Of a stretch of DNA of 64,000 nucleotides, positions 4,731 through 63,395 are shown piece after piece. This DNA is from Stegostoma tigrinum (lineage: Eukaryota): positions 21,085,410 to 21,149,409 of the forward strand of contig NC_081366.1 of the NCBI RefSeq assembly GCF_030684315.1, read 5' to 3'. The notes below the pieces were generated by a model. That model saw nothing but the letters and a program-made list of their open reading frames with translations. It was not told the origin of the DNA and searched no databases. The position numbers and the translations under genes are program-made. The first letter of the stretch is position 1; every line of letters begins with the position of its first letter.

Positions 4731-5825
4731 GTTATGATGTGGAGGTGTCAGTGTTGGACTGGTGTGTACAAGGTCAGAAATCACAAGACACCAGGTTACA
4801 GTCCAAAAGGTTTATTTGAAAACGCAAGCTTTCACAGCCTCACTCCTTCTTCAGATGCGAGTGAGAGAGGTAGTATCAGACACAGAATTTATAAGTAAAA
4901 GATCAAAGGATCACACTACCCTTTGTATTAAACAAACCTGAGATGCTGTTAAATCTTTAATCAGTTAGAAGGTTTTAATTGATTAATATGTAAACGTAAA
5001 TCCCCAAATTCCTTTCAAGTCACTGTCCTGAGAGAATGAAAGGTTTTATCAATGTAAAGAAGAGATGACATTTTAGGTCAGACAATGTACGTTAGGTGTG
5101 CAGCCTTGTTTAGAATCTGTTTGTGTTTTAGTTTGGAGTCAGACTGGTTTTATTTCTAAAGTAGGAATTTATAAAACACCGCATTGATTGACTGTCTATA
5201 AATTGTGTGCTTTTTGAACAAAATAAAATGTATCTGCAAATACAAATTCATCCCATAGATTCATGTGTGTGTGTGTGTGTGGGGTGGGGAGTGGGGGTGG
5301 AAGAGAGAGAGAGAAAGAGAGTGTATGTGTCTAGGGGAGAGAATTGTGTGTGTCTGTGGGAGAGAGAGAGAATTGTGTGTGTGCATGTGTGTGTGTTTGT
5401 AGGAGAGAGGGGATGTGTGTGTTTCTGTGAGTGACGTATAGTGTCGTGGGCTTACCTGTCATGTGACATGAATCAAAGATCCCGGTTGAGGCTGTCCTCA
5501 TGGGCGCCAAACTTGGCTATCAGCCTCCACTCGGTGACTCTGCACTGTTGTGTGTCCCAAAGTCTGCCTTGGAGGACAGTTACTTGAAGATCCAAAGCCA
5601 GATGTCCTTGACCACTGAAGTGTTCCCCCACTGGGAGGGAACATCCCTGTCTGGCGATTGTTGCATGGTGCCCGTTCATCCATTGTCAAGGCGTCTGGAA
5701 GGTTTTGCCAATATACTTTGCCTCGGGTCATCCTTGCCTGCAGCATATGAGATAGAAAACATTGGCTGAGTGACATGAGTATCTGCCGTGTATGTGGCGG
5801 GTGGTGTTCCCACGTGTGATGGTAG
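4731..5825 (-). mobile_element. Penelope-like element (PLE) 3' fragment: GIY-YIG endonuclease C-terminus, microsatellite-rich UTR and terminal repeat
   Basis: ORF 5473-5679 'MNGHHATIARQGCSLPVGEHFSGQGH...RLIAKF..HEDSLNRDL' is a typical PLE endonuclease C-terminus. TG/GA microsatellite at 5264-5430. Decayed hammerhead core at 4823-4857 (minus): CAT-CTGAAGA-A-GGAG..CTGT-GAAA-GC-TT-GCG. Confidence 0.85.
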
Positions 5826-12949: not shown

Positions 12950-13425
12950 GTCTGTGTGTGTGTATGAGAGAGAGAGAGAAAAGGAGAGATTGACTGGTTC
13001 CCCTCGCCCAGACACTGGAGCATCATTGTCAGGAAAGCGCGCAAACACACACGCACACACACACCTATCCCCTTCTCTGTTGAGCCGGATCGATGTAAAA
13101 TTGTGTTGAGTTTGTGTCAAAATTAAATGCCGGTTTAGACAGATCTATGGTGGTGGTGGTGAGAGCCAGAGTTCAGAGTGTTAAATGTATCGGTGGAAGG
13201 GTGGGTGGTAGGCAGATCAAACATTGTTGCACCTTGCCCAGTGTAAACTGCCGTGTGTCTGTGTGTGTGTGTGTGTGTGTGTGTTTGTGTATGAGAGGGA
13301 GGAAGCCGGGGGTACAAGCTGCCGGCAAGTGACCAGGGGCGATGGTGACAGAGGGAGAGAGGGCAGCTTGCCGTTGATGGAAGAAGGGTTGGGGGGGTGG
13401 ATTAGAGAGAGAGAGAGAGGGGACA
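12950..13425. repeat. (TG)n/(GA)n/(CA)n microsatellite cluster immediately upstream of the promoter
   Basis: Dinucleotide runs at ~12950-12980, 13044-13063, 13253-13290 and 13404-13418. Confidence 0.9.
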
Positions 13426-14720
13426 TCTGCTATTTACACCTGTCTGGCTGACAGCCATCAGTTGTCATGGAGTCACTGGGGTAGACATCAGCGGCTGGAG
13501 CTCAGAGCTTACATCCAGCCGCACTCCTGCGCTCTTATTTAATCTATTTCTCAAGTTCTCCAAACCCTCGGACTTAGTTATTTTTTCTTCCCACAGTGTT
13601 GGTACTTATTCCTGCTCCCAGACCCTCCCTCCTCCTGTTCCGCCAGATAAAAGAGAAACCGAGGCAGTGCGAAGCTGTTCCACTGTTTGGCTCTCTCCAC
13701 TATATATATGTACATTATTTTTTTCTCTTCTCTTTGAAGCTCTGACATTTCGGAGGTTTCTATATTTCTCTCTCTCTCCCGTTTATATATTTTTTTGCCT
13801 GTTTTCTCCGGGCGGCTGGAGAGTTGCAATCTCCCAAAGCCGGCTCCGGTCATGCCCGAGGCTCGCTTCAACTCCAGCACCGCGCTGCCTTCTTCCACAG
13901 CGGGGTCATAGACAGGGAACTGTCCTGCTCACAACCCAGCGCATTACCCACCCCCACCCCCCCCGCACCCCTCCCCACACCTCCTCTTCCCAGCTCTCTG
14001 CACCTTCCCATCCCCTCTTACTGCCTCGCTCGCCCTTTCCTATCGCTTGTTTGTTTATTTCATTCCACCTCTTGCATTTCATCGCTCTCTCTACCCCATC
14101 CATTTCATTCCTTCCACCTTCCTGCTTTCTCTTTCGTTTCATTCCTCCGCCCCCCCCCCTTTTTTTCGCTTCCCTTCCTCTTCTTTTATCCCTCCCTCTT
14201 TCATCCCCCCTCCCTCTCTCTCTGTCGGATCTCCCCGCCCTCCGCCTCTCCTCTCCCTCTCTCTGCCTATCTGCCTCCAGTCCAGAGGAGTCAGCGAGGT
14301 CAAAGACGGGACTTGGCTATTTCTCTCACCCGCTGCAGCCGCTGATACCGGAATCCGGGAGGAACTGGCGAGCGATCTGGCGGTGTGCGGCCGCTCTCCG
14401 GCTCCGTCGGCGTCTTCGTCTCCTTGCAGTCGGAGGGCGAGGCGAGCCCAGGGGGCAGTCCAGCGCCAAGCCCCGGACATGTTGCTTGCCAACGCGGCCA
14501 AACCCAAGAACTTCCCGGCGGAGACAGGTAGGTGCTCAGCTCTCGCATCGTTCAGTCAATCCATCAACCCTGCTGACTGGCTCGGGCTGAGCGACAAACT
14601 GTAGCCTCTTGGAATATTCTCGGAGAGAGAGAGAGAGAAGAAAGATTTTAGTTCTGGTAGCCATCCCGAATTCATGTTCTCGTTGTACCCATGCAGTGCG
14701 TTCGAGACGGGTTGTAAAAG
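13300..14720 (+). promoter_or_regulatory. CpG-island promoter and long first exon (candidate TSS ~13460; exon ends at 14527)
   Basis: GC- and CpG-rich segment peaking at 14280-14600. TATA-like 'ctatttac' at 13430 lies ~29 nt before an Inr-like TCAGTT at 13458. Pyrimidine-rich UTR-like stretch. Strong donor CAG|GTAGGT at 14527/14528. Confidence 0.7.
14479..14527 (+). CDS. Candidate first coding segment (MLLANAAKPKNFPAET + 1 nt) of an unidentified gene; could be an in-frame upstream extension
   Basis: ATG at 14479 (G at -3), 49 nt before the donor (phase 1). Joins in frame to the 51329-51360 exon. No homolog recognised. Confidence 0.45.
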
Positions 14721-15756
14721 AGGCAATTGCCTTCCCCTTCCATCAAAAAAGTTAAATGAGAAACTGGAACTGTTTTTGTTGCCACTTGTATTCTGCTGAA
14801 TTGAGCGCTTTTTTCTTAACATTGAATGTTTCTCCGGATTCCAGTTCCGGACTATCGGGGGTTGGTAAGGCTGTGGGAGAGCTTTTCCTGACTCTGCAGC
14901 TTGCCAACACAATTAGACAAGCATCATTTCACTCTTCCACCTTTAACATGTCTTCTCAAAGCCAATTTCAGCAATTCATTTTTATTTATATATGAAATAG
15001 GATTTTACTATTAAGATTTAATGGCTGTCCTTCTCCAGAAGGTGATCTTTTGCTGATGTTAGGTGGTGTCGTTGTCCGGAGGATTCTCCGCAAACTGCGA
15101 GCACTGTTTACAATTTGTGGTTCGCGCTGTTGATGTCCTTGCTTTGTCATCTCAACGTGGGGACAAGTGATGTTCGGTGTCTCGTTACTATAATGCGGGA
15201 TTTCATTTTCCAAATTGCGTAGCAAGTTATGGAGTAAGAATATGGCAATGAACTGCCGCTTGTAAGCAGTTCTACCACCTCTTGCATGATCCTTAACGAT
15301 AAAGAAAACCCAGACCAAGCAGATGTTTAAGCGAACATTTAGGCTAAATTCTCCTTCTTTCATAAGGAGGTAATAAGTCGAAACGGTTAAAAATTATGAA
15401 CTTCCCAAATGACAACCTATTCCTTTTAAATTCTTCAATTAGTTTAATTGGTTTAGAGAACGGTGTCCCATTGGATTCACTGCCTTCTCTGGTAGGAGTC
15501 TGTTAAATGCCTGTCATGTCATGTTACAAGTCCCTGTTTCAACAAACTTGTTACAATTAAATTATTCATTTATATTCAATTTTAAGAGAAGAAATCTAAC
15601 GAACAAGAGGGAATAAATTGGAGAAAGTTTATATTTCTCCATTTAACTCTCAAACCACTGCATGTTAAAGCTTCTTGAAACTTTTTTTTAAAAAGTGCAG
15701 TTTGCACCTCCACGCTATGAACGATGGGGTTTATTATGTCAAATACCAAATATTTT

Positions 15757-15896
15757 GAAAACCAAAACAACTGTGGATGCTGTAAATCAGGAACAAAAAC
15801 AAAGTTGCTGGAAAAGCTCAGCAGATCTGGCAATATCTGTGAAGAAAAAAAATCAGAGTTAACGTTTTCGAGCTGAGGAAGGGTCAACGAACCTTA
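15757..15896 (-). mobile_element. PLE terminal-repeat-derived insertion with an inversion inside the hammerhead core
   Basis: 12-bp direct repeat accaaatatttt at 15745-15756 and 15897-15908. The minus-strand half ('agagttaacgttttcg') is followed by the + strand 5' half of the core ('ctgaggaagggtc'). Confidence 0.85.
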
Positions 15897-16872
15897 ACCA
15901 AATATTTTAAGGTAGAATTGAGGGAACAAAGTGTTTTCTGTGAATCTAACTTATAACATTCCCCTTCCTTTTGAAACTTAAAAAGGAACTTTTTCTTGAT
16001 GTTTTGTTTATGACAATTCTGACCAAGCTTTGAGTGTCCTGTGCACAAAAGTGTAAGTAATTCAACTTAACAGTGGTGGTGTGGTGAAATCTTGTATTTT
16101 TCTTTGATAACTGAAATTACGGTGATCATAGTGTTTTAGGTGATTGTCAAAACTGATGGTGTGTTTTATTCTGAGAAGGGGGCAAGGGAATGTCAGTATT
16201 GACAGCAATGTAGAGCGAGGAAAATCTTTTATATCGAGCCTAAAAATATAGAATTTTGACCTGTTCTTTAAAAGCAGTGCTGTCTGAACAGAAATGTTCT
16301 GAAAACACTGTAATAAATTTAATAATTTTATATCTCCTTATAATGGGCATTGAAATTAGCTTTTCACATTTAAGGAATGCAGGCAGCTTCAACATAAATT
16401 AATCTAACGAGTAGCACCACACTCTAATTACAATAGTGACAGTAATACAACATTTTTTAAATATAAAGGGTGACACTGTTTTGAATGTAGATAGATACAT
16501 CATGGATCAAAATCTCCATTTAGCCCTTAACAAATTCAGGATGGAAACATCCATTTATCCGGGGTGGAATGCTTGGATAACCAACATTTACCTAAAAGTT
16601 CATTTATATATTCATCTTTTGGCAGTGCAGAAATTAAGTTGCCGTTTTAATGAAGGATGTGGCTGACAAATCAGGAAATGTTAGGAATTATTGCTTATTT
16701 GGAATGCGGTTATAGGTTCTACTAATGAATAGTTGCTGATAAAAACACAAAAGGTTCTTCTAACCATTCTCCTCAAAACAACAATAGTGTGAAAGTGACT
16801 TGATGCAATGTCGATTTTCATTTATTACACTCATTCATAGAAAAGTTTGGTCTTCACTCTTAGCCATTTGAT

Positions 16873-16979
16873 ACAAAAACAGAAATTGCTGGAAAAGCTC
16901 AACAGGTCTGGCAGCATCTGCAGAGAGAAATCAGAGTTAACATTTCGGGTCAAGTGACCCTTCCTCAGAATCAAGGAGA
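16873..16979 (-). mobile_element. 107-bp PLE terminal-repeat-derived insertion carrying a hammerhead core
   Basis: Perfect 13-bp TSD ttagccatttgat at 16860-16872 and 16980-16992. Confidence 0.9.
16935..16971 (-). ncRNA. Minimal type-I hammerhead ribozyme motif (near-intact core)
   Basis: Minus strand reads ATT-CTGAGGA-A-GGGTC-ACTT-GACCC-GAAA-TG-TT-AACT. Stem II is a perfect 5 bp, the stem III palindrome is CpG-decayed (ACGT>ATGT), and stem I is only 2 bp in this copy. Confidence 0.65.
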
Positions 16980-26530: not shown

Positions 26531-26554
26531 AGATGTTTGTACAGGTTTAACCCA

Positions 26555-26652
26555 CTTTTGTGCTCCTAAGATGCTGCTTGGCCTGCTGTGCTCATCCAGT
26601 TCCACACTTTATTATCTTGGATTCTCCAGGATCTGCAGTTCCCATTATCTCT
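26555..26652 (+). mobile_element. PLE terminal-repeat fragment beginning at the predicted ribozyme cleavage site
   Basis: 'cttttgtgctcctaagatgctgcttggcc...ctgcagttcccattatctct' is nearly identical to the arm of the 31589 element but has no hammerhead core. Confidence 0.85.
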
Positions 26653-31588: not shown

Positions 31589-31803
31589 GAGATAATGGGA
31601 ACTGCGGATGCTGGAGAATCCAAGATAACAAAGTGTAGAGTTGGATGAACACAGCAGGCCAAGCAGCATCTTAGGAGCACAAAAGCTGATGTTTTGTGCC
31701 GAGACCCTTCATCAGAAAAGGGTCTAGGCCCGAAACATCAGCTTTTGTGCTCCTAAGATGCTGCTTGGCCTGCTGTGTTCATCCAGCCCCACACTTTGTT
31801 ATC
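31589..31803. mobile_element. Young fold-back (palindromic) PLE terminal-repeat element
   Basis: ~85-bp near-perfect inverted arms (~31624-31709 and ~31718-31803). Flanking direct repeats atcattttttcaagggta (31570) and atcactttttcaaggtta (31801) match 16/18. Confidence 0.9.
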
Positions 31804-41679: not shown

Positions 41680-42630
41680 TAAGAACGTAAGAACCAGAGC
41701 AGGGATAGGCCACCTGGTCATTCAATAAGATCATGGCTGATCTTTTTGTGGCCTCAGCTCCACTTGACCGCCCTCTCACCATAACCCTTAACTCCTTTAC
41801 TGTTCAAACAATTATCTATCTCAGCTTTAAAAACATACAGTGATGAAGCCTCAACTACTTCACTGGGCAGGGAATCCCACAGATTCACAACCCTTTGGGT
41901 GAAGAAGTTCCTCCTCAATACAGTCCTAAATCTGGTGCTCTTAATTTGAGGCTATGCCCTCCTCTTCCAGTTTCACCCACCAGTGGAAACAACCTCCCTG
42001 CTTCTATCTTGTCTATTCCCTTCATAATTTTACACATTTCTGTAAGGCCCCTCTCATTCTTCTAAATTCCAATGAATATAATCCTTGTCTACTCAGTCTT
42101 TCGTCATAAGCCAACCCTCTCAACTCCTGAGTCAACCTGGTGAATCTCCTCTGCACCTGCTCCACTGCCAGCACATCCTTTCTCAGGTAAGGAGACCAAA
42201 ACTGCATGCAGTATTCCAGTTGTGGCCTCATGAGCACCTTATACAGCTGCAACATAACCTCCCTGCTTTTAAACTCAATCCCTCTAGCAATAAAGGGCAA
42301 CTTTCCCTTTGCCTTCTTAATTACCTGTTGTACCTGCAAACTAACCTCCTGTGATTCATGCTCAGGGACATTCAGATCCCACTGCACAGCAGCACACTGC
42401 AATTTTTTACTATTCAAATAATAGTCCATTTTACTGTTATTCCTACTAAAATGGATGACCTCACATTTATCAACTTTGTACTCCATCTGCCATTTGCTCA
42501 CTCACTTAAAATATCCATATTCCTCTGCAAACTTCCAGAGTCCTCTGCACACTTTGCTGTACCAAACTTTGACACATGACGTGGTCCCCAACTCCAAATC
42601 ATCTGTGTAAACTGTAAACAATTGCAGCCC
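41680..42630 (-). mobile_element. CR1 LINE 3' fragment
   Basis: ORF 42022-42501 (WQMEYKVDKCEVIHF...LYKVLMRPQLEYCMQFWSPYLRKD...VQRRFTR). 3' tail 'taagaacgtaagaac'. Confidence 0.92.
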
Positions 42631-44363
42631 CGGCAGAAGGGTGGTGGGGTAAGTGGGGCGTGTGGAGCAGACGAGGGAGTCACAGAGACAGCAGTCCCTC
42701 CAGAAGGCAGATAAAGGTGTGGAGGAAAAATGTCCTTGGTAGTGGGGTCAGATTGAAGGTAGCAGAAGTGGTGGAGGATGATGCGTTGGATCCAGAGGTT
42801 GGTGGGGTGGTACATGAGGATGAGGGGCATTCTGTTTTTGTTGTTTTTGCAGGTAGTCATTGTGAGGGATGAGTTGTGGGAAACGCAAGAGACGCGGCCA
42901 AAGGCAGTTCCAACCAATGTGGAGGGGAAATCGCGGCCCTTGACAAACAAGGGCATCTGAGATGCCCAGGAATGGAATGCCTCATCTTGGGAGCAGATGT
43001 GGCAGAGGTGAAGCAATTGGGAATAGGGGATGGCATTCTTACAGGAAGGTGGGTGAGAGGAAGTGTATTTTTGGTAACTGTGGGACTCGGTAGGCTTGGA
43101 ATAGATATCAGTTTCCAGATGGTTGACAGAGATGGAAACAGAGAGGTCAAGGAAGGAGACAGAGTTATTAGAGATGGTCCAGGTGAACTTAAGATTGGGG
43201 TAGAAGGTGTTTATAAAGTGAATGAACTGTTCAAGCTCCTAGTGAGAGCACAAGGCAGCGCCAGTACAGTCATCGATATAACAGAGGAAGAAGCGGAGGA
43301 TGGGGCCAATGTAGCTGTGAAAGAGGAACTGTTTGACATATCCTACAAAGAGGCACCCATAGCTTGGGCCCATGTGGGTAACCATGGCCACACCCTTTGT
43401 CTGTCGGAATAGGTCCACACTCATCTGCTCCACACTCCGCACTACCCCCACCATCCCGGCACTTTTCCCTGCAACTGCAGAAAGTGCTACACCTGTCCCT
43501 GCCCCTCCCTTCTCACCCCATCCCAGGCCCCAAGAAAACCTTCCACATTAAACAGATGTCCACTTGTACACTTGCTAATGTGGGAAATTGTATCCGCTGT
43601 TCCTGATGTGGCCTCCTCTACACTGGGGAAACCAAGCGGAGGCTTGGAGACTGCTTGGTGGAACACCTACACTCGGTTCGCAACGACTATACCTCCCAGT
43701 CGCGAACCACTTCAACTCACCCTCCCACTCCTTGGATAACATGTCCATCCTCAGCCTCCTCCAGTGCCACAATTATGACGCCCGAAGGTTGGAGAATCTG
43801 AGATAACAAGGTGCAGAGCTGGATGAACACAGCAGAATAAGCAGCGTCAAAAGAGCAGAAAAGCTGACGTTTCGGGTCTGGGCCCTTCTTCAGAAATGGG
43901 GGAGGGGAAGGGAACTCTGGACCTCATAATTCATTTGGAAACCCTGCAGCCTAATGGTATCAATGAGGATTTCACAAGCTTCAAAATCTTCCCTCCCCCC
44001 AACCTCATCCCAAGACCAGCCCAGCTCGTACCTGCCTCCTTGACCTGTACACCTTTTCTCCCACCTATTCTCTCCTCCCACCTCACTCACAACCCCGATC
44101 CCTACTTCCTGTCTACTAGCCTCATCCCCACCTCCTTGACCTGTCCGTCTTCTCTCCACCTATCTGCTCCTCTCTCCACCTTCCATCATTGCCCTGTCTC
44201 TATTTATTTCAGAGTTCCCTTCCCCTCCCCCATTTCTGAAGAAGGGGCCATACCCGAAACATTAGCTTTCCTACTCCTCTGATGCTGCTCGGCTTGCTGC
44301 ATTCATCCAGCTCTACACCTTGTTCTCTCAGATTCTCCAGCATCGACAGCTCCTACTATCTCT
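42631..44363. mobile_element. Rearranged Penelope-like element (RT on minus, GIY-YIG on plus, inverted terminal repeats)
   Basis: Minus ORF 43239-43454 'QTKGVAMVTHMGPSYGCLFVGY...CYIDD' (PLE RT). Plus strand 'FHIKQMSTCTLANV..CIRCS*CGLLYTGETKRRLG' (GIY-YIG). Inverted ~130-bp repeats at 43790-43918 and 44210-44340. Confidence 0.9.
43862..43896 (-). ncRNA. Minimal hammerhead ribozyme motif in the PLE terminal repeat
   Basis: Minus strand reads TTT-CTGAAGA-A-GGG-CCCAGA-CCC-GAAA-CG-TC-AGCT, with the core and a GUC site intact and a weak stem I. The sister copy on + at ~44233-44268 reads GAAA-CA-TT. Confidence 0.6.
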
Positions 44364-46514: not shown

Positions 46515-48190
46515 ACATAGAACGTAGAACATAGAACATTGCAGCGCAGCACAGACCCTTCAGCCCTCGATGTTGCGCGAAGCTGTGAAACCAACCTGAA
46601 GCCCATCTAACCTACACTATTCTATTAACATCCATATGTTTATCCAATGACCATTTAAATGCCCTTAAAGTTGGTGAGTCTACTACTGTTGCAGGCAGGG
46701 CATTCCACGCCCTTACTACTCTCTGACTAAAGAATCTACCTCTGACTTCTGTCCTATATCACCCCTCAATTTAAAGCTATGTCCCCTTGTGCTAGCCATC
46801 AACACCCAAGGAGAAAGGCTCTCACTGTCCACCCTATCTAATCCTCTGATCATTTTGTATGTCACTTCTAAGTCACCTCTTAACCTTCTTCTCTATAACA
46901 AAAACAGCCTCAGGTCCCTCAGCCTTTCCTCATAAGACCTTCCCTCCATACCAGGCAACATCCTGGTAAATTTCCTGTGCACCCTTTCCAATGCTTCCAC
47001 ATCATTCCTACAATGCGGCGACCAGAACCATATGCAATACTCCAAGTGCCGCTGCACCAGAGTTTTGTACAGCTGCAACATGACTTCATGGCTCCGAAAC
47101 TCAATCCCTCTACCAATAAAACATAACACACCGTAGACCTTCCTAACAACCCTATCAACCTGGGTGGCAACTTGCAGGGATCTATGCACCGAGATCTCTC
47201 TGGTCATCCACACTATCAAGAATCTTACCATTAGCCCAGTACTCTGTATTCCTGTTACTCCTTCCAAAGTGAAGCACCTCACACTTTTCTGCATTAAACT
47301 CCATTTGCCACCTCTCAGCCCAGCTCTGCAGCTTATCTATGTCCCTCAGTAACCTACAACATCCTTCCGCTCTATCCACAACTCCACCGACTTTAGTGTC
47401 ATCCGCAAATTTACTAACCCATCCATCTATGCCCTGATCCAGGCCATTTATAAAAATGACAAACAGCAGTGGCCCCAAAACAGATCCTTGCGGTTCATCA
47501 CTAGAAATGGAACTCCAAGATGAACATTTTCCATCAACTACCACCCTCAGTCTTCTTACAACTAACCAATTTCTGATCCAAACCGCTACATCACCCTCAA
47601 TCCCGTGTCCCCTTATTTTCTTCAATAGCCTATCATGGGGAACCTTATTAAATGCTTTACTGAAATCCATATACACCACATCAACCACTTTACCCTTATC
47701 CACCTGTTTGGTCACCTTCTCAAAGAACTCAGTAAGGTTTGTAAGGCACAACCTACCCTTCACAAAACCGTGTTGACTATCCCCAATCAAATTATTCTTT
47801 TCTAGATAATTATAAATTCTATCTCTTATAATCCTTTCCAACGCTTTACCCACAACCGAAATAAGGCTTACCGATCTATAATTATCAGGGTTGCCTCTAC
47901 TCCCCTTCTTGAACAAGAGGACAACATTTTCTATCCTCCAGTCTTCTGGCACTAGTCCTGTAGACAATGATGACATAAAGATTAAAGCCAAAGGCTCTGC
48001 AATCTCATTCCTAGTTTTCCAGAGAATCCTAGGATAAATCCCATCCAGCCCAGGGGACTGATCTATTTTCACACTTTCCAGAATTGCTAACACCTCCTCC
48101 TTATGAGCCTCAATCCCATTTAGTCCTATAGCCTGCATCTCAGTATTCTCCACGACAACATTGTCTTTTTTATTTGTGAATACTGACAAA
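46515..48190 (-). mobile_element. Best-preserved CR1 LINE (5'-truncated, ~1.7 kb) with RT domain
   Basis: ORF 47182-48264 with NYRSVSL, QHGFVKGR, YMDFSKAFNKV, PQGSVLGPLLF and FADD, continuing after a frameshift into ORF 46893-47294. 3' (TGTTCTA)n-type tail at 46516-46538. Confidence 0.95.
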
Positions 48191-48862
48191 GAAGGAATGG
48201 TAAGAGAGCACATCTTCTGGAACCTTCCAGACTTGGATTCCAGTTCCGTGTGGTTTGATATCATGACTTAGTTCCTTATGAACTTTTACTGTTTGTGATT
48301 CTTACAATAAAGGTATAGTTAACCTTTCTACTTCACATAAATATCCCAGAGTGGGAGTCACATGTACACTGTGCTTGTAGACAGGCTTGTTCTAATATGT
48401 TGTTTAAAACCTCTTTTGTAACCAACTATGGAAGAAAATAAACTCCTGGTATTAGTGTTCAGTTCACCTTCAGTCAATTCATAACAGCATTCCCAACTGG
48501 GGAAAACTTTGAGCTCAGAACAAAAGTACAATTTTTAGTGAATTTGGCTACATCCAAGGTTAGTTAAAACAGCAAATGTTGAGCTAAAGATAAATTTAGC
48601 ATTGTTTAATGACACTTATAATTACATCATATGAACGGGGTGTTGATAGCTTCAACATTAAACTATTAACACCTCCAGCTAAGCATTAGCCACACAATAG
48701 ATATTCACTTCGTTTTGTTAACAGACCTGAAGTGTTAGACTTGATCTACATGCATGAAAATTCTATTCACAGAAATTTCAGTCAGCACTTTTTTCTGTTT
48801 TGGGAACTAGGGCAAGAAAACGTGATCATTTGGTTTCCAGTCCAAAAGTATGTACAATATTC

Positions 48863-49086
48863 AGAGATAACAAGAATTGCGGATGGTGGAGTCAGAGATA
48901 ACACAGTGTGGAGCTGGAGGAACACAGCAGGCCAGAAAGCATCAGAGGAGCAGGAAAGTTGACACTTCAGGTCAGAATCATTCTTCAGAAAAGTTGAAGT
49001 AGGGTCCTGACCCAAAATGTCAATTCTCCTGCTCCTCTGATGCTGTCTGGCCTGCTGTGTTCCTCCAGCTCCACACTGTGTTATCT
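48863..49086. mobile_element. Fold-back (palindromic) PLE terminal-repeat element
   Basis: Inverted arms 'agataacacagtgtggagctggaggaacacagcaggccaga...' and '...tctggcctgctgtgttcctccagctccacactgtgttatct'. 9-bp repeat tattcagag at 48858-48866 and 49091-49099. Both hammerhead cores are decayed. Confidence 0.9.
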
Positions 49087-54420: not shown

Positions 54421-56251
54421 CAAGGATCAAAGTTTTTCATCTTGCACAAATCAGGACAACTTGCAAGAATGTCAGTGTAAAGTGGAACAATAAGCCCAAG
54501 AGACAGTAAATCTCATAACTGCTGATTGACTCATAGGTAGACTCTGGGATTGCTAAAAAGATTGCAGTGGCAAATATACTGGCTAGATGATGACTGACAA
54601 TTAACTGCTAAGTTTTGTTTCAATTTAAACCAGACAAGTTGACACATATTGATTAAGGCATTTCCCTAACAATAGAATCAGAGAATGGATGCTGCTTAAT
54701 TTGTTCAATTGAAATCGAAAAGAAGAGGCCCATGTATTAACATATATATTTTACCATACATGCACGTGTGCCCAACTAAAATTCTTAAATTAGATGTCAA
54801 ATTTTCAGCATAATTTTGGCACATTGAAGATTATTCAGCAAATGACTAATTATGGAATCATATCCAATGTTGGACATCTTTGAGTTTCACAAGCATGGTT
54901 AGTGGAGTATGTACATCTATCTGTCTTTGGGTGTACGGCTTACATATTTGTCATTACAGTACCTCTGAAATGTTTAAAACACATTGCTCATTTGTGCTTT
55001 TGGCTTTTTTAACTTTGAGTGGCAGAGGAGTTGCATTAACTCACTGTGAGTTGACAATTTAAACCAAGTAGGTTGACTCTGATTAACTAAGGCATTGAAA
55101 GAACAGTACATTCAAACATTCCCTCACCACCTGTTAAACCATCAGTAGTATAATAATATTAATCTGGTCAAATAGTGAATTATGTCCATCCCACCTTTTC
55201 TTCTCAAAACACCCTTCCCTCCATACTGAAAATATTGGTGGATAGTGAATTGGAGTAACTCTAACTCTAGATGACAAAAGCACCTCTCTTAAAATAAGTC
55301 CCTTTTCAGCTATTTTCACCTCTTCCTCTTGATAAATCCCATCATGCCATGAGTGAAGGCTCTAATTAAGGGGAATGGTGTTCCAATCCAAAACCTCTGC
55401 TGTTGTTGATGTGTAAACAGCTGCGGGAAATTGGTATAAACCAGAAGGGAATGATTTACCCTTCAAGTTTCTGTAACTCCTTGTAGAAAAGAACATTGGT
55501 TTGCTTGACAACACTCCTCAAATCAAGATCTCAAACTGTCAGGCAATGCAAGTTTTTGTGTTTTATATCTGTTGTAATGACTTCCATCTAGAAATAATGC
55601 AAATTATATTGTCACCCATATTTATGACACACTTATATCAAGTTTTTCTTGGAACCATTTTGAAAAGATTTTAGACCATTTAAAATGAAGAAGGTTTGGC
55701 ACCTCGGTTAGTTTGCTCCAGAAAGCACACCATGTGATTGCATTATGGATTTGAGTAAAATTCTTCACAGTCATTTTCAACATCGAATTTACTCTTGAAG
55801 TTTGTCTTCCTTGAGATATGAATTGTTAGTAGTAGGGAATGGAATGGTTTTCATTTGAACAATAAGTGTTCTGATCAAGCATTTGGCAGGTTAGTCATAG
55901 CATGCTTCAGCATAAAATGAAGCTTGGAAAATCACAGATGCCTGGAAAAATAGCACAAATGTGGAGTTAGATTTAAAACAAGTATCACAGCTTCAAAAAC
56001 ATATTAACTGGAAGTCAGTTGAGAACATAATACCTTTACATGTTACTACATTTGGAGTACAATGGGCATAGGTTGTCCAGATTTAAGCTGGAGACAAGGC
56101 TGACCTTGTGTCACTTACATAACGGAAAATTGTGACAAAATTTACAAGGCTTTACTCTTATTTCTTCTGGAGGAATTATAAGCTATTGTGGATAAGTGTT
56201 GGCACTGTCTGCTGTATTAGGTAAATGTGTTTCAGATTGTCTACATTGTTT

Positions 56252-56609
56252 AAGGTTTTGGAGTAGATCTGTAGCTCGGGTTGTGGGTGCTGAGGTTGGT
56301 TGGCTCGCCGAGCTGGTTTGTTGTTCCACAAACGTTTCGTTACCGTGCTTGGTAACATCTTCAGTGCAGTCTCTGATGAAGCGTTGGTGTGTTTTCCCAC
56401 CTGGTTTTTAAACTCTGGGTCAGTTGCGATGGATTGCCTCACTTCCGTGTTTCCTCCATATTGGAATGTATGTGGGGTCGAGTTCAATGTGTTTATTAAT
56501 AGCCTGCTTTTTGGAGTGCCATGCTTCCAGGAATTCTCGTCCTTGTCTCTGCCTAGCCTGTCCCAAGATCTTGGTGTTGTCCCAGTCGCAGTCACGGTTC
56601 TCCTTCTCC
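56252..56609 (-). mobile_element. Penelope-like element (separate family), 5'-truncated, with TSD
   Basis: ORF 56420-56611 'DWDNTKILGQARQRQGREFLEAWHS...INKHIELDP' (GIY-YIG C-terminus). Flanking repeats attgtctacattgttt (56236-56251) and attgtctacttagttt (56610-56625). Confidence 0.9.
56327..56368 (-). ncRNA. Minimal type-I hammerhead ribozyme motif, best copy in the window
   Basis: Minus strand reads TGCA-CTGAAGA-T-GTTACC-AAGCAC-GGTAAC-GAAA-CG-TT-TGTG: perfect 6-bp stem II, 4-bp stem I (two G-U pairs), palindromic ACGU stem III and a GUU cleavage triplet. Confidence 0.75.
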
Positions 56610-57894
56610 ATTGTCTACTTAGTTTCATAGGCATTGTCACCTTTTTTGCTGCCCTCCAGCCCAAACAAGCATTACAAACATATGTAAGCCATTCAGCCCC
56701 AAACGTGTGCTACCATTCTAGCTATGTTAGGATTCACCTGAACCTCTACTAAAGTCTGCCTCACTTAACTCCCTAGTTCTCACTGGAACTCTCCTGTTCC
56801 ATCAATTCATTCAGTTCAGGATGACAATCTTCTATCCTCCCTTTTCAGTTCATTTATTTCCCCTGACGTCACTGCCCAATCCCTCAGCTCTGCTTATGGC
56901 TTCTCTCTGATGCTATTACTGGAAGATTGAGCTCTGCCACACATGGTGCGTGAGAAATCCTGCTCTCACAAAACAACCATGAGAATTCTTGCCAACAGCA
57001 TGCATGACTTTGATCACTACTAGAACTATAGCAGCATCAGTTAGGGACTGAGAAAGGTGCTGATGAAACCAAGCTGAAACTGGTGCAGGTGATTTTCTGC
57101 AAAAGCTCACATTTGGTTTGAAATGCTGATGTGTGTGTAAAATATATTTCCGTGCAAGATTGGGGTAATTGTATCAATATATGCTCTGGCAGGGTTTCTA
57201 ATGTCATCTGGCAATAAATGACCTGCCACATTTACGTTTATAAACATGCACAATCACTTGCTGAAGGTGCAAGCTGACAATGTTGCAGTAGAGGAGGCTA
57301 AGCAAATCCACAGTTAAACACAAATAAAGCGAAAGTTGCTGCCTGAATTTTACTGCTGTGATACAAGTAATTTTATGCAAACGCTCTATAGGCCTCACTT
57401 TTGAATGATGTGAAGTTGCTGTAATTCCACAGTATTTATGAATTATATTCAACACTGATGGCTATTTCTGTTTATCCAGGAAATGAATGAACAGGGCAAT
57501 CAGTTGTACCTCCTTATGGGTATCGTAAAATTGATCGTGCAAAGACTGAGAATGAAGTATAAATTTAAGTTGTCATACTCTGTGTCAAATCAAGTATAGA
57601 AAGAAGAGAGGAAAGGTTAGACTGAGATGAAAAATGACACAGAAAGGAAAAGTAGGAGAAAAAATATTTTTTCACTCACCCAACCACAACTAAAATGTGA
57701 AAGAATAAAAATCCATTCCTGAAAAAAGTGTTTCCCAACCACCACCAGAGAGACGTACTGTAATGAGTGGGTTTTATCAGGTTGTGAAAAGTGTACAAAT
57801 TGTGAAATGAACAAGAATGAACAGAAAAGCCCTCATTGGTGAACTTAGTTCATATATACTGTGGAAATACAGCAACTTCACATCATTCATCAGA

Positions 57895-61001: not shown

Positions 61002-61450
61002 AAGGTTCTTGAGTAGATTTGTAGCTCGGGTTATGCATACTGTGGTTGGTTGCCTCGCTGATCTGGTTTGTTAGTTCGCAGTTGTTGCATTACCCTGCTG
61101 GGTAACATCATCTGTGCAGCCTCCGATGAGGTGCTGTTGTGTTTATCCGCTTGGTATTTAAACTCTGGGGTCCATTGGAATTGGTTACCTCATTTCCGTT
61201 TTTTCTTCGCACCAGTGCATATATAGGGTCTAATTCTGCGTGTAAATTGAAGGCCTTCTTGGTGGAGAACCAAGGCTCTAGGAATTCTTGTGCTTGTCTC
61301 TGTTTGGCCTGTCGTAGGATCCTGGTGTTATACCAATCAACCTGGTGGTTCTCCTTATCCATATGAATGGAGATGAGTAAGGACTAGTCATGTCTTTTTG
61401 TTATATTGTTATAATTGTTCATGTATTTTTGCGGCAGTTTTCTTCCTGTC
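61002..61450 (-). mobile_element. Older copy of the 56252 PLE family
   Basis: ORF 61108-61362 (DWYNTRILRQAKQRQAQEFLE...LDPIY) and TGRKL..IHE remnants. 9-bp repeat ttaatttca at 60993-61001 and 61451-61459. The hammerhead core is decayed but stem II GTTACCC/GGGTAAT is retained. Confidence 0.85.
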
Positions 61451-62661: not shown

Positions 62662-63395
62662 GATTCATAGAGATCTACAGCACGGAAGTAGACCCTTCTG
62701 TCCAACTGGTCCTTGCTGACCAGATGTCCTAAATAATTCTAGCCCCTTTTACCAGCATTTGGCCTTATCTCTCTCAACCCTTCGTATTCATGTACCCATC
62801 CAGATGCCTTTTAAATGTTGTAATTATACCAGCCTCCACCACTTCCTCTGGCAGCTCATTCCAGACATGCATCACCCTCTGTCTTAAAAAGTTGCCCCTT
62901 TGGCCCATTTTAGATCTTTTCCTTTTCACCTTAAACCTATGCCTTCTAGTTTTAGACTCCCCCACCTTGGGGAAAAGAACTTGTCTATTTACCCGATCCA
63001 TGCCCCTTGTGATTTTATAAACCTCTATAAGGTCTCCACTCAGCCTGAGGCACTCCAGGGAAAATAGCCCCGGTTTATTAAGTCTCTCCTTATAGCTCAA
63101 ATCCTCCAACTCTGGCAACATCCTTATGAATCTTTTCTGGACCCTTTCAAGTTTCACAACATCCTTCCTAAAGCAGGGAGACCAGAATTGCTTGCAGTAT
63201 TGCATTAGTGGCCTAACCAGTGTCCTGTACAGACTCATCATGATATCCCAACTCCTATATTTAATGCATTGATCAATAAAGCAAAGCAAACCAAACACCT
63301 TCTTTATTATCCTATTTACCTGCGACTCTACTTTCAAGAACTATGAACCTGCACTCTAAGGTCTATTTTTCAGCAACACTCACGGGACATTACCC
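62662..63395 (-). mobile_element. CR1 LINE 3' fragment
   Basis: ORF 62774-63337 (LYRTLVRPLMQYCKQFWSP...GDLIEVYKI...RVMHVWNELPEEVV...FKRHLD). Confidence 0.92.

Follow-up and report, generated by a model that had tools for sequence, protein, structure and literature searches.

A near-intact minimal hammerhead motif in a decayed Penelope-like element of Stegostoma tigrinum is probably a fossil

Minimal hammerheads (min-HHRs) are known from the pLTRs of metazoan Penelope-like elements (PLEs), including Xena, Poseidon and Neptune of fish (Cervera and De la Pena 2014, PMC4209133). As described there, they resemble the motif of the family analyzed here, D1, in the core, the extra base after A9, the G10.1-C11.1 pair, the palindromic 15.2-16.2 positions, the absence of stem III, the 4-5-bp helix I, the long helix II and the location in a terminal repeat; single truncated copies, inverted pairs and several families per genome are also common to that account and to this genome. 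The D1 motif is of this already described kind. The main text of PMC4209133 makes no mention of sharks or other cartilaginous fish, and it gives about 4,000 motifs in coelacanth and 9,000 in Xenopus, compared with 79,031 copies of a single family B word here, although the methods differ. The Poseidon element PAc of Anolis carolinensis has the same start-codon layout as D1, and the proposed kinship rests on that layout. PAc is active and has been assayed, whereas all long D1 copies that were read are broken; the PAc ribozyme cut only with its own protein present, cleavage depended on C3 and G8 and was restored by the double change, and insertion in vitro did not require it (PMC11167929). The same source reports no RNA-seq ends at the PAc cut site, whereas genomic 5' junctions of D1 and of its sister family D2 are enriched there. 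Naiad and most Chlamys PLEs are described as lacking hammerheads, and the role of PLE hammerheads has been called unclear (PMC8557442). Animal non-LTR retrozymes, whose type I hammerheads are tied to PLE pLTRs as here, have been reported in one chondrichthyan genome (bioRxiv 10.64898/2026.07.22.740005). In those retrozymes every unit of a tandem array has its own complete hammerhead, whereas the copy analyzed here is one truncated end of a PLE that retains coding remnants, and its nearest same-strand relative lies 4.7 kb away with a broken core; we rejected a retrozyme identity on the lack of tandem units.

The motif lies on the minus strand of a window of 64,000 nucleotides, which is the whole stretch of DNA that we analyzed (Table 1). 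We consider the window copy to be an inert fossil in a dead, 5'-truncated Penelope/Poseidon-type copy, with a probability of about 0.8, and neutral decay has probably left it near-intact by luck. By itself the single copy is of minor importance; the family bears on the role of PLE hammerheads. What is added at the family level is neutral decay, a core that holds the stop codon and the likely start codon of the ORF, and a footprint at the cut site that is weak but was seen in two families.

Table 1. Features of the hammerhead motif, the surrounding insertion and related units in the window
Feature	Position	Strand	Details
Minimal type I hammerhead motif	56326..56369	-	Sequence, fold, structural table
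Stem I	56369-56365 with 56330-56326	-	5 pairs: A-U, C-G, G-U, U-G, C-G
Hammerhead core	56364-56358 + 56338-56335	-	
Extra U between A9 and 10.1	56357	-	
Stem II	56356-56351 with 56344-56339	-	6 pairs; opening pair G10.1-C11.1 = G56356-C56339
Palindrome ACGU, no stem III	56335-56332	-	
N17 = U	56331	-	Predicted cut 56331/56330
UGA = U4-G5-A6	56361..56363	-	Stop codon of the element ORF in D1 copies
AUG = A9, extra U, G10.1	56356..56358	-	Likely start codon in the upstream repeat
3' end of Penelope/Poseidon-type element, family D1	56251..56611	-	361 bp, 5'-truncated; match to other loci
C-terminal piece of endonuclease region	56424..56611	-	80% identity over 61 aa to copy L171
'Tail' of ~40 bp between two D1 3' ends	56251..56290	-	Copies end near 56251 or 56288-56293
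Probable target-site duplication, upstream copy	56610..56624	-	15 bp; read by eye; 13/15 alike
Probable target-site duplication, downstream copy	56236..56250	-	Read by eye
Older related Penelope fragment	61002..61362	-	73% alike; core broken at several bases; nearest same-strand relative
Family B unit (Neptune-type)	43802..43896	-	Core intact; 2-bp stem I, 3-bp stem II
Inverted partner of family B unit 43802..43896	44232-44326	+	
Family A/E unit	16875..16971	-	Core intact; palindrome lost
Family C unit	4761..4857	-	AGCU palindrome; stem II broken

Re-reading the window from 56368 to 56327 on the minus strand gave the same letters as the original prediction, TGCA CTGAAGA T GTTACC AAGCAC GGTAAC GAAA CG TT TGTG, with N17 at 56331. 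Every core part is present (C3-A9, the extra U, G12-A15.1, ACGU, U16.1 and U17), matching the min-HHR pattern CUGANGA plus GAAA-N-N-U-H with GUU as the triplet. A one-base spacer separates A9 from the G10.1-C11.1 pair, ACGU provides the palindromic 15.1-16.1 segment in place of stem III, and a short helix I of five pairs, two of them G-U, stands against a longer helix II of six. The copy had been called apparently intact, which holds for the core bases and stem pairs but not for U17, a G-U in stem I, N7 and 56370, where it departs from the D1 majority. The stem I G-U is a former G-C altered by a CpG change, and the triplet GUC has become GUU, with C17 present in 26 of 26 comparison copies; U17 also sets the window copy apart from the min-HHRs of PMC4209133. 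Overall, the divergence from the D1 majority is 5-6%, like that of other copies. Contigs from four DNA runs, which come from one study with at most two samples and are possibly the source of the assembly, carried 56312-56358 without any other letter at about flank depth and spanned both insertion edges. Because these contigs show no alternative letter, U17 is not an assembly error.

All 29 other loci alike to 56251-56611 matched at 89-92.5%, and 56251 was the end of most of them. D1 loci have a common 3' end, differing 5' truncation points and, frequently, an inverted partner. The endonuclease piece in the window reads into a premature stop near 56412, and a Pfam scan of 56424..56611 by itself gave no match. 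In longer D1 copies, the reverse transcriptase (RT) was recovered as Pfam RVT_1 (E 9.3e-9 in L171 and 3.2e-4 in L161) within a single ORF, though this ORF is broken in the copies read. The GIY-YIG endonuclease (EN) motif is visible by eye in D1, without a Pfam match in L171, and a sister-family copy (L394) gave GIY-YIG at E 0.0035, under the cut-off. On inspection, D1 translations lack the CxxC zinc-finger linker between RT and EN, an absence used to delimit Penelope/Poseidon (PMC8557442); the endonuclease-like region without this linker in the long copies, as judged from their translations, points to that clade. The repeat occurs at both ends in the same direction in 5 of 30 loci found by their RT stretch, and the full-length copies L171 and L174 carry the same repeat at each end. 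Partial tandem repeats, inverted 5'-truncated partners and a 30-40-bp tail are all present in D1. Together with the RT and endonuclease motifs, these features support the assignment of the motif as a minimal type I hammerhead in a Penelope terminal repeat. Every long D1 copy that was read, comprising four longer copies and five with the repeat at both ends, contains stops and frameshifts. Ten near-identical copies of one D1 deletion variant (L253 among them) lie within 3 Mb of contig C56, likely as a result of segmental or tandem amplification.

The core of the D1 hammerhead also punctuates the ORF. The endonuclease frame ends ...HQRLH* at the core UGA in five copies (L055, L056, L057, L058 and L180), and the frame that opens at the core AUG, five bases away from the stop, extends in L174, L180, L161 and L156 across the rest of the repeat and beyond it into the ORF body, with copy-specific breaks. 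The core AUG is thus likely the start codon of the ORF in full-length copies. Overlap of a start codon with the hammerhead has been reported for PAc (PMC11167929). No stop-codon overlap was found in passages of that paper, and the main text of PMC4209133 mentions neither codon; the supplements and figures of both may show such an overlap. The predicted cut falls 25 nt after the core AUG, and cutting of the upstream repeat would therefore remove the start codon. The presence of both codons in the core suggests a testable role in translation control.

A pile-up of 5' ends at the predicted cut would be in vivo evidence of cleavage. We collected D1 copies that carry a 16-base anchor immediately after the cut, among which 1,516 keep the three upstream stem II bases and 80 differ at all three, many of these by indels; 71 of the 80 rows were used, leaving out nine near-identical rows from C56. 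The script called 37 junctions over 15 positions, with 6 at N1.1 and 8 at N1.2 (chi-square p=0.004), compared to an upstream control window (40 rows, selected by eye among the first 100 of 115) in which 36 junctions were flat (p=0.58). The N1.1-N1.2 interval was chosen after seeing D1 and fixed before D2, in which 6,361 copies keep the stem; 12 of 38 D2 junctions fell in this interval (p=0.003), from 59 of 188 rows, namely the first 30 and another 29 chosen by eye among rows 31-100. Hand cleaning dropped two deletions from D1 and, from D2, five junctions with other LINE tails, one duplicate and one indel, and two D2 rows were moved. The cleaned counts at N1.1-N1.2 were 13/35 in D1, 11/31 in D2 and 24/66 pooled over the 15 positions (p=2e-6 under a uniform null, which ignores chance matches). 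By position, the pooled junctions numbered 11 at N1.1 (p=0.004), 13 at N1.2, 2 at U16.1 and 0 at N17; at the exact base N1.1, D1 had 5/35 (p=0.08). We rejected the idea that the D1 cut-site junctions are full-length 5' ends, as all 12 that were checked are short stubs of 43-85 bp. We estimate the excess at the cut, with a detection rate of 0.42, at about 0.5-1.5% of copies. The footprint is modest, albeit replicated in D1 and D2, and its simplest explanation would be reverse transcription running off cut RNA.

The pile-up could instead mean that reverse transcription stalls at stem I or that transcription starts at N1.2, with no visible cutting in vivo, a reading that we consider rather improbable. 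A G after the U at N1.2 fits the pyrimidine-purine pattern of a transcription start, junctions at N1.2 match or exceed those at N1.1, and counts are also raised at +2 and +3. The lack of RNA-seq ends at the site in Anolis (PMC11167929) agrees with such an origin. However, the pile-up is at the 5' edge of the helix, whereas reverse transcription should stall at the 3' edge, a start at N1.2 would fall downstream of the AUG, and an extra G before the junction was read by eye in only 4 of 24 cases. The sharp drop just upstream, at U16.1 and N17, also argues against both.

If the footprint does come from cut RNA, the job of the ribozyme would have belonged to the parent element and not to the window copy. 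The parent transcript would be a tandem of repeat, ORF and repeat, with the stop codon observed in the core and the start codon probably there as well. Reverse transcription, if it initiates as in PAc, would begin either about 70 or about 108 nt downstream of the AUG, in keeping with the two 3' ends of the family. Normally it would cross the uncut ribozyme, which would explain why nearly all insertions, the window copy among them, keep the whole motif; the 1,516 D1 copies that retain the stem II bases, against 80 that do not, fit such a dominance of uncut template. In a small share of transcripts the ribozyme may fold, likely helped by the element protein and by a second copy pairing via ACGU. 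The folded ribozyme would cut 25 nt after the AUG, and the 3' piece would be copied into short stubs that start at the cut. Since a cut in the upstream repeat would remove the start codon, the ribozyme would most likely have served to inactivate or shorten some of the messages that the element makes, and not to produce the template for insertion. More tentatively, as a rather improbable speculation, the genome may preserve a fossil record of Poseidon hammerheads cutting in living germ cells, with insertions that start at the cut making up about 1%. The ribozyme might then act as a built-in switch, in which folding competes with stop-restart translation of the tandem message and protein-assisted cutting removes the start codon as a feedback brake set by the element's own protein. 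Core-complete motifs number in the hundreds of thousands, and a few of them might even now cleave host transcripts.

For the window copy itself, stems I and II form the predicted minimum-energy fold of a 51-nt piece, with a stability of z = -0.97 that 33 of 200 shuffles equalled. This predicted fold, together with the retention of all core bases and stem pairs, counts against a fossil. Stem I was lost from the predicted fold with 101 nt of context, and the hammerhead dimer lay 4.8 kcal/mol above the best dimer fold for a 56-nt piece and 35.7 kcal/mol above it with 105 nt of context. No D1-type copy was found in the 10 kb on either side of the window. Among the triplets of trans-acting hammerheads, GUU belongs to the tier just above the lowest (PMC8879150), low-ranked yet cleavable (PMC8879150, PMC3138052). 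U17 need not kill cleavage because it is the majority state in families A/E (38/43) and C (7/8). The majority triplets of these two families, GUU and CUU, occupy the two lowest tiers of the PMC8879150 ranking, as if weak cleavage were tolerated or favoured there. A min-HHR monomer is reported not to have cleaved, and dimers to cleave weakly in vitro (PMC4209133). The dimer model on which the original prediction drew is incomplete, given that the tested Poseidon ribozyme needed added protein (PMC11167929).

These results make it improbable that the window copy, once transcribed, retains a low level of cleavage, either in trans with another D1 transcript or helped by PLE protein, and could so nick host or antisense RNA. 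The complete core and stems, the small dimer gap of the 56-nt piece, the native U17 of other families and the weak in vitro activity of min-HHR dimers would allow it. Set against this are the large gap and the loss of stem I in context, a D1 helper protein that is likely gone because the ORFs are broken in all long D1 copies read, and the lack of an intact neighbour copy. A further point is the hint of a plus-strand host gene, to which the motif would be antisense, from a CpG island and the donor at 14527. The CpG island accompanies a long pyrimidine-rich, UTR-like stretch at 13300-16000 of the window with a strong plus-strand splice donor at 14527/14528, and a host gene whose first intron is long probably begins in this region; of 10 candidate host exons in the window, the five that were scanned gave no convincing Pfam match.

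The reading of the window copy as a fossil draws also on the decay of its family. To avoid choosing on the ribozyme, 29 D1 loci were picked by their endonuclease part alone; 26 of these cover the repeat, and 25 remained after one near-duplicate was dropped. Outside CpG sites, about 27% of which have decayed in D1 copies, the core of the 25 copies differs from the majority at 11/247 bases (4.5%) and the flank at 98/1912 (5.1%; Fisher p=0.76), and we thus found no purifying selection on the core after insertion at the level of the D1 family. By these sequence comparisons D1 copies drift neutrally after insertion, and the window copy, which passes an intact filter passed by only 1 of the 25 comparison copies, would be a lucky draw among the 22 units of the window. 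There may be weak selection on the core: C17 is unchanged in the 25 copies, and the 3' core is somewhat less diverged than the flank in families B and A/E (p=0.09 and 0.13). U17 was read by eye in 5 of 100 among the matches listed from the 1,516 D1 copies.

The stems did not covary among D1 genomic copies but did so between families. Within D1, 270 pair-cells comprised 224 unchanged, 22 with a one-sided change that kept the pair, 23 broken and only 1 with a two-sided change that kept it. Across five family majorities in the structural table, in contrast, pair 2.1-1.1 appears as A-U, U-A and C-G, pair 2.2-1.2 as C-G, U-A, A-U and U-G, pair 10.3-11.3 as U-A, U-G, G-C and A-U, and pair 15.2-16.2 as C-G and G-C. 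This covariation in stem I, stem II and the palindrome indicates that selection for the fold acted on the master elements. The view of the window copy as a good candidate for live cleavage is not supported; the copy has a private C17U, it is isolated within a dead fragment, and D1 shows neither selection on the core after insertion nor covariation among its genomic copies.

It is likewise improbable that the motif was kept mainly by coding constraint on the stop codon, the start codon and the N-terminal peptide, together with protein binding, and not by catalysis. The stop and likely start codons do lie within the core, insertion of PAc proceeds in vitro without cleavage (PMC11167929), and Naiad and most Chlamys PLEs do without hammerheads (PMC8557442). 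However, families B, A/E and C, in which the extra base after A9 is A and no AUG arises at A9, keep the same 11 core bases and compensatory stems, and the C3 and G8 dependence of PAc cutting with its double-change rescue (PMC11167929) also points to catalysis. Exaptation of the window copy by the host as a regulatory ribozyme is very improbable, as the copy is as diverged as others, carries weakening changes and owes its selection to hindsight, being the best of the 22 units in the window, even though it passes the intact filter that 24 of the 25 comparison copies fail.

The original prediction of several ribozyme families at very high density, with 15 or more related units in 64 kb, was confirmed. 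An Rfam scan of the window returned no hammerhead among 14 matches up to E=10, as we would expect for a motif without stem III, but a strict descriptor (core, stem II of at least 3 pairs and GAAA-N-N-U-H, with stem I optional) gave 5 matches, compared to a mean of 0.16 and a maximum of 2 in 100 dinucleotide shuffles. In 620 kb of the genome, sampled as 62 stretches of 10 kb, the descriptor gave 46 matches, 10 of them with a stem I of at least 3 pairs, versus 0-4 in 12 shuffles. Family profiles counted 22 units in the window and 193 in the sampled 620 kb, which by extrapolation suggests about one million units in 3.2 Gb. The 32-base core word of family B has 79,031 exact genome copies (a control word has 0), and family B is therefore much younger than D1, whose 34-base majority word is exact at only 24 genome places. 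This copy number makes the genome a large natural mutagenesis set for minimal hammerheads.

Three other units, at 16935, 43862 and 4823, had been presented as parallel copies that keep the structure across unrelated sequences. The structure is indeed kept across different sequences, but all three are more decayed than described: the 16935 copy has AUGU in place of the palindrome and two contiguous stem I pairs, and in the 4823 copy, which the strict descriptor does not recover, the base of stem II consists of G-U followed by G-G. Nor are 16935 and 43862 unrelated, as the family profiles of the two recover largely the same matches. Family B has a stem I of 2 pairs and a near-palindromic stem II, which could for that reason also pair between molecules. 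A CxxC linker and a GIY-YIG-like stretch lie upstream of the family B unit at 43300-43800, and such a stretch was found no more than 1.2 kb upstream in 22 of 91 family B units. Family B units of the window lie at 26554-26616, 31624-31803, 43802-44326 and 48897-49085, and inverted pairs are common. The insertion at 42498-44340 is a fold-back of Neptune type: its minus strand has remnants of the RT, its plus strand those of the linker and the endonuclease, and hammerheads lie at 43893 (minus) and 44236 (plus).

We also evaluated the possibility that a ribozyme-dead Penelope subfamily had spread, as a core-broken word has 179 exact copies. This was rejected because 29 of 30 loci continue into a LINE ORF1 with ZCCHC3-type RNA-binding domains and zinc knuckles. 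The front end of this LINE, which has a Tx1-like ORF1 (L366-L395), carries a core-broken copy of the 3' half of the ribozyme, and the poly(A) tail of the LINE abuts loop II of the D2 hammerhead; such tails occur in L297, L301, L309, L317, L339, L355, L370, L379 and L383. Elsewhere in the window, the stretches at 47182-48267 (minus strand), 42022-42501, 46893-47336 and 62774-63340 are what we take to be CR1/L2-like LINE remnants, and the one at 47182-48267 contains a 361-aa open stretch that matches RVT_1 with E 1.7e-31.
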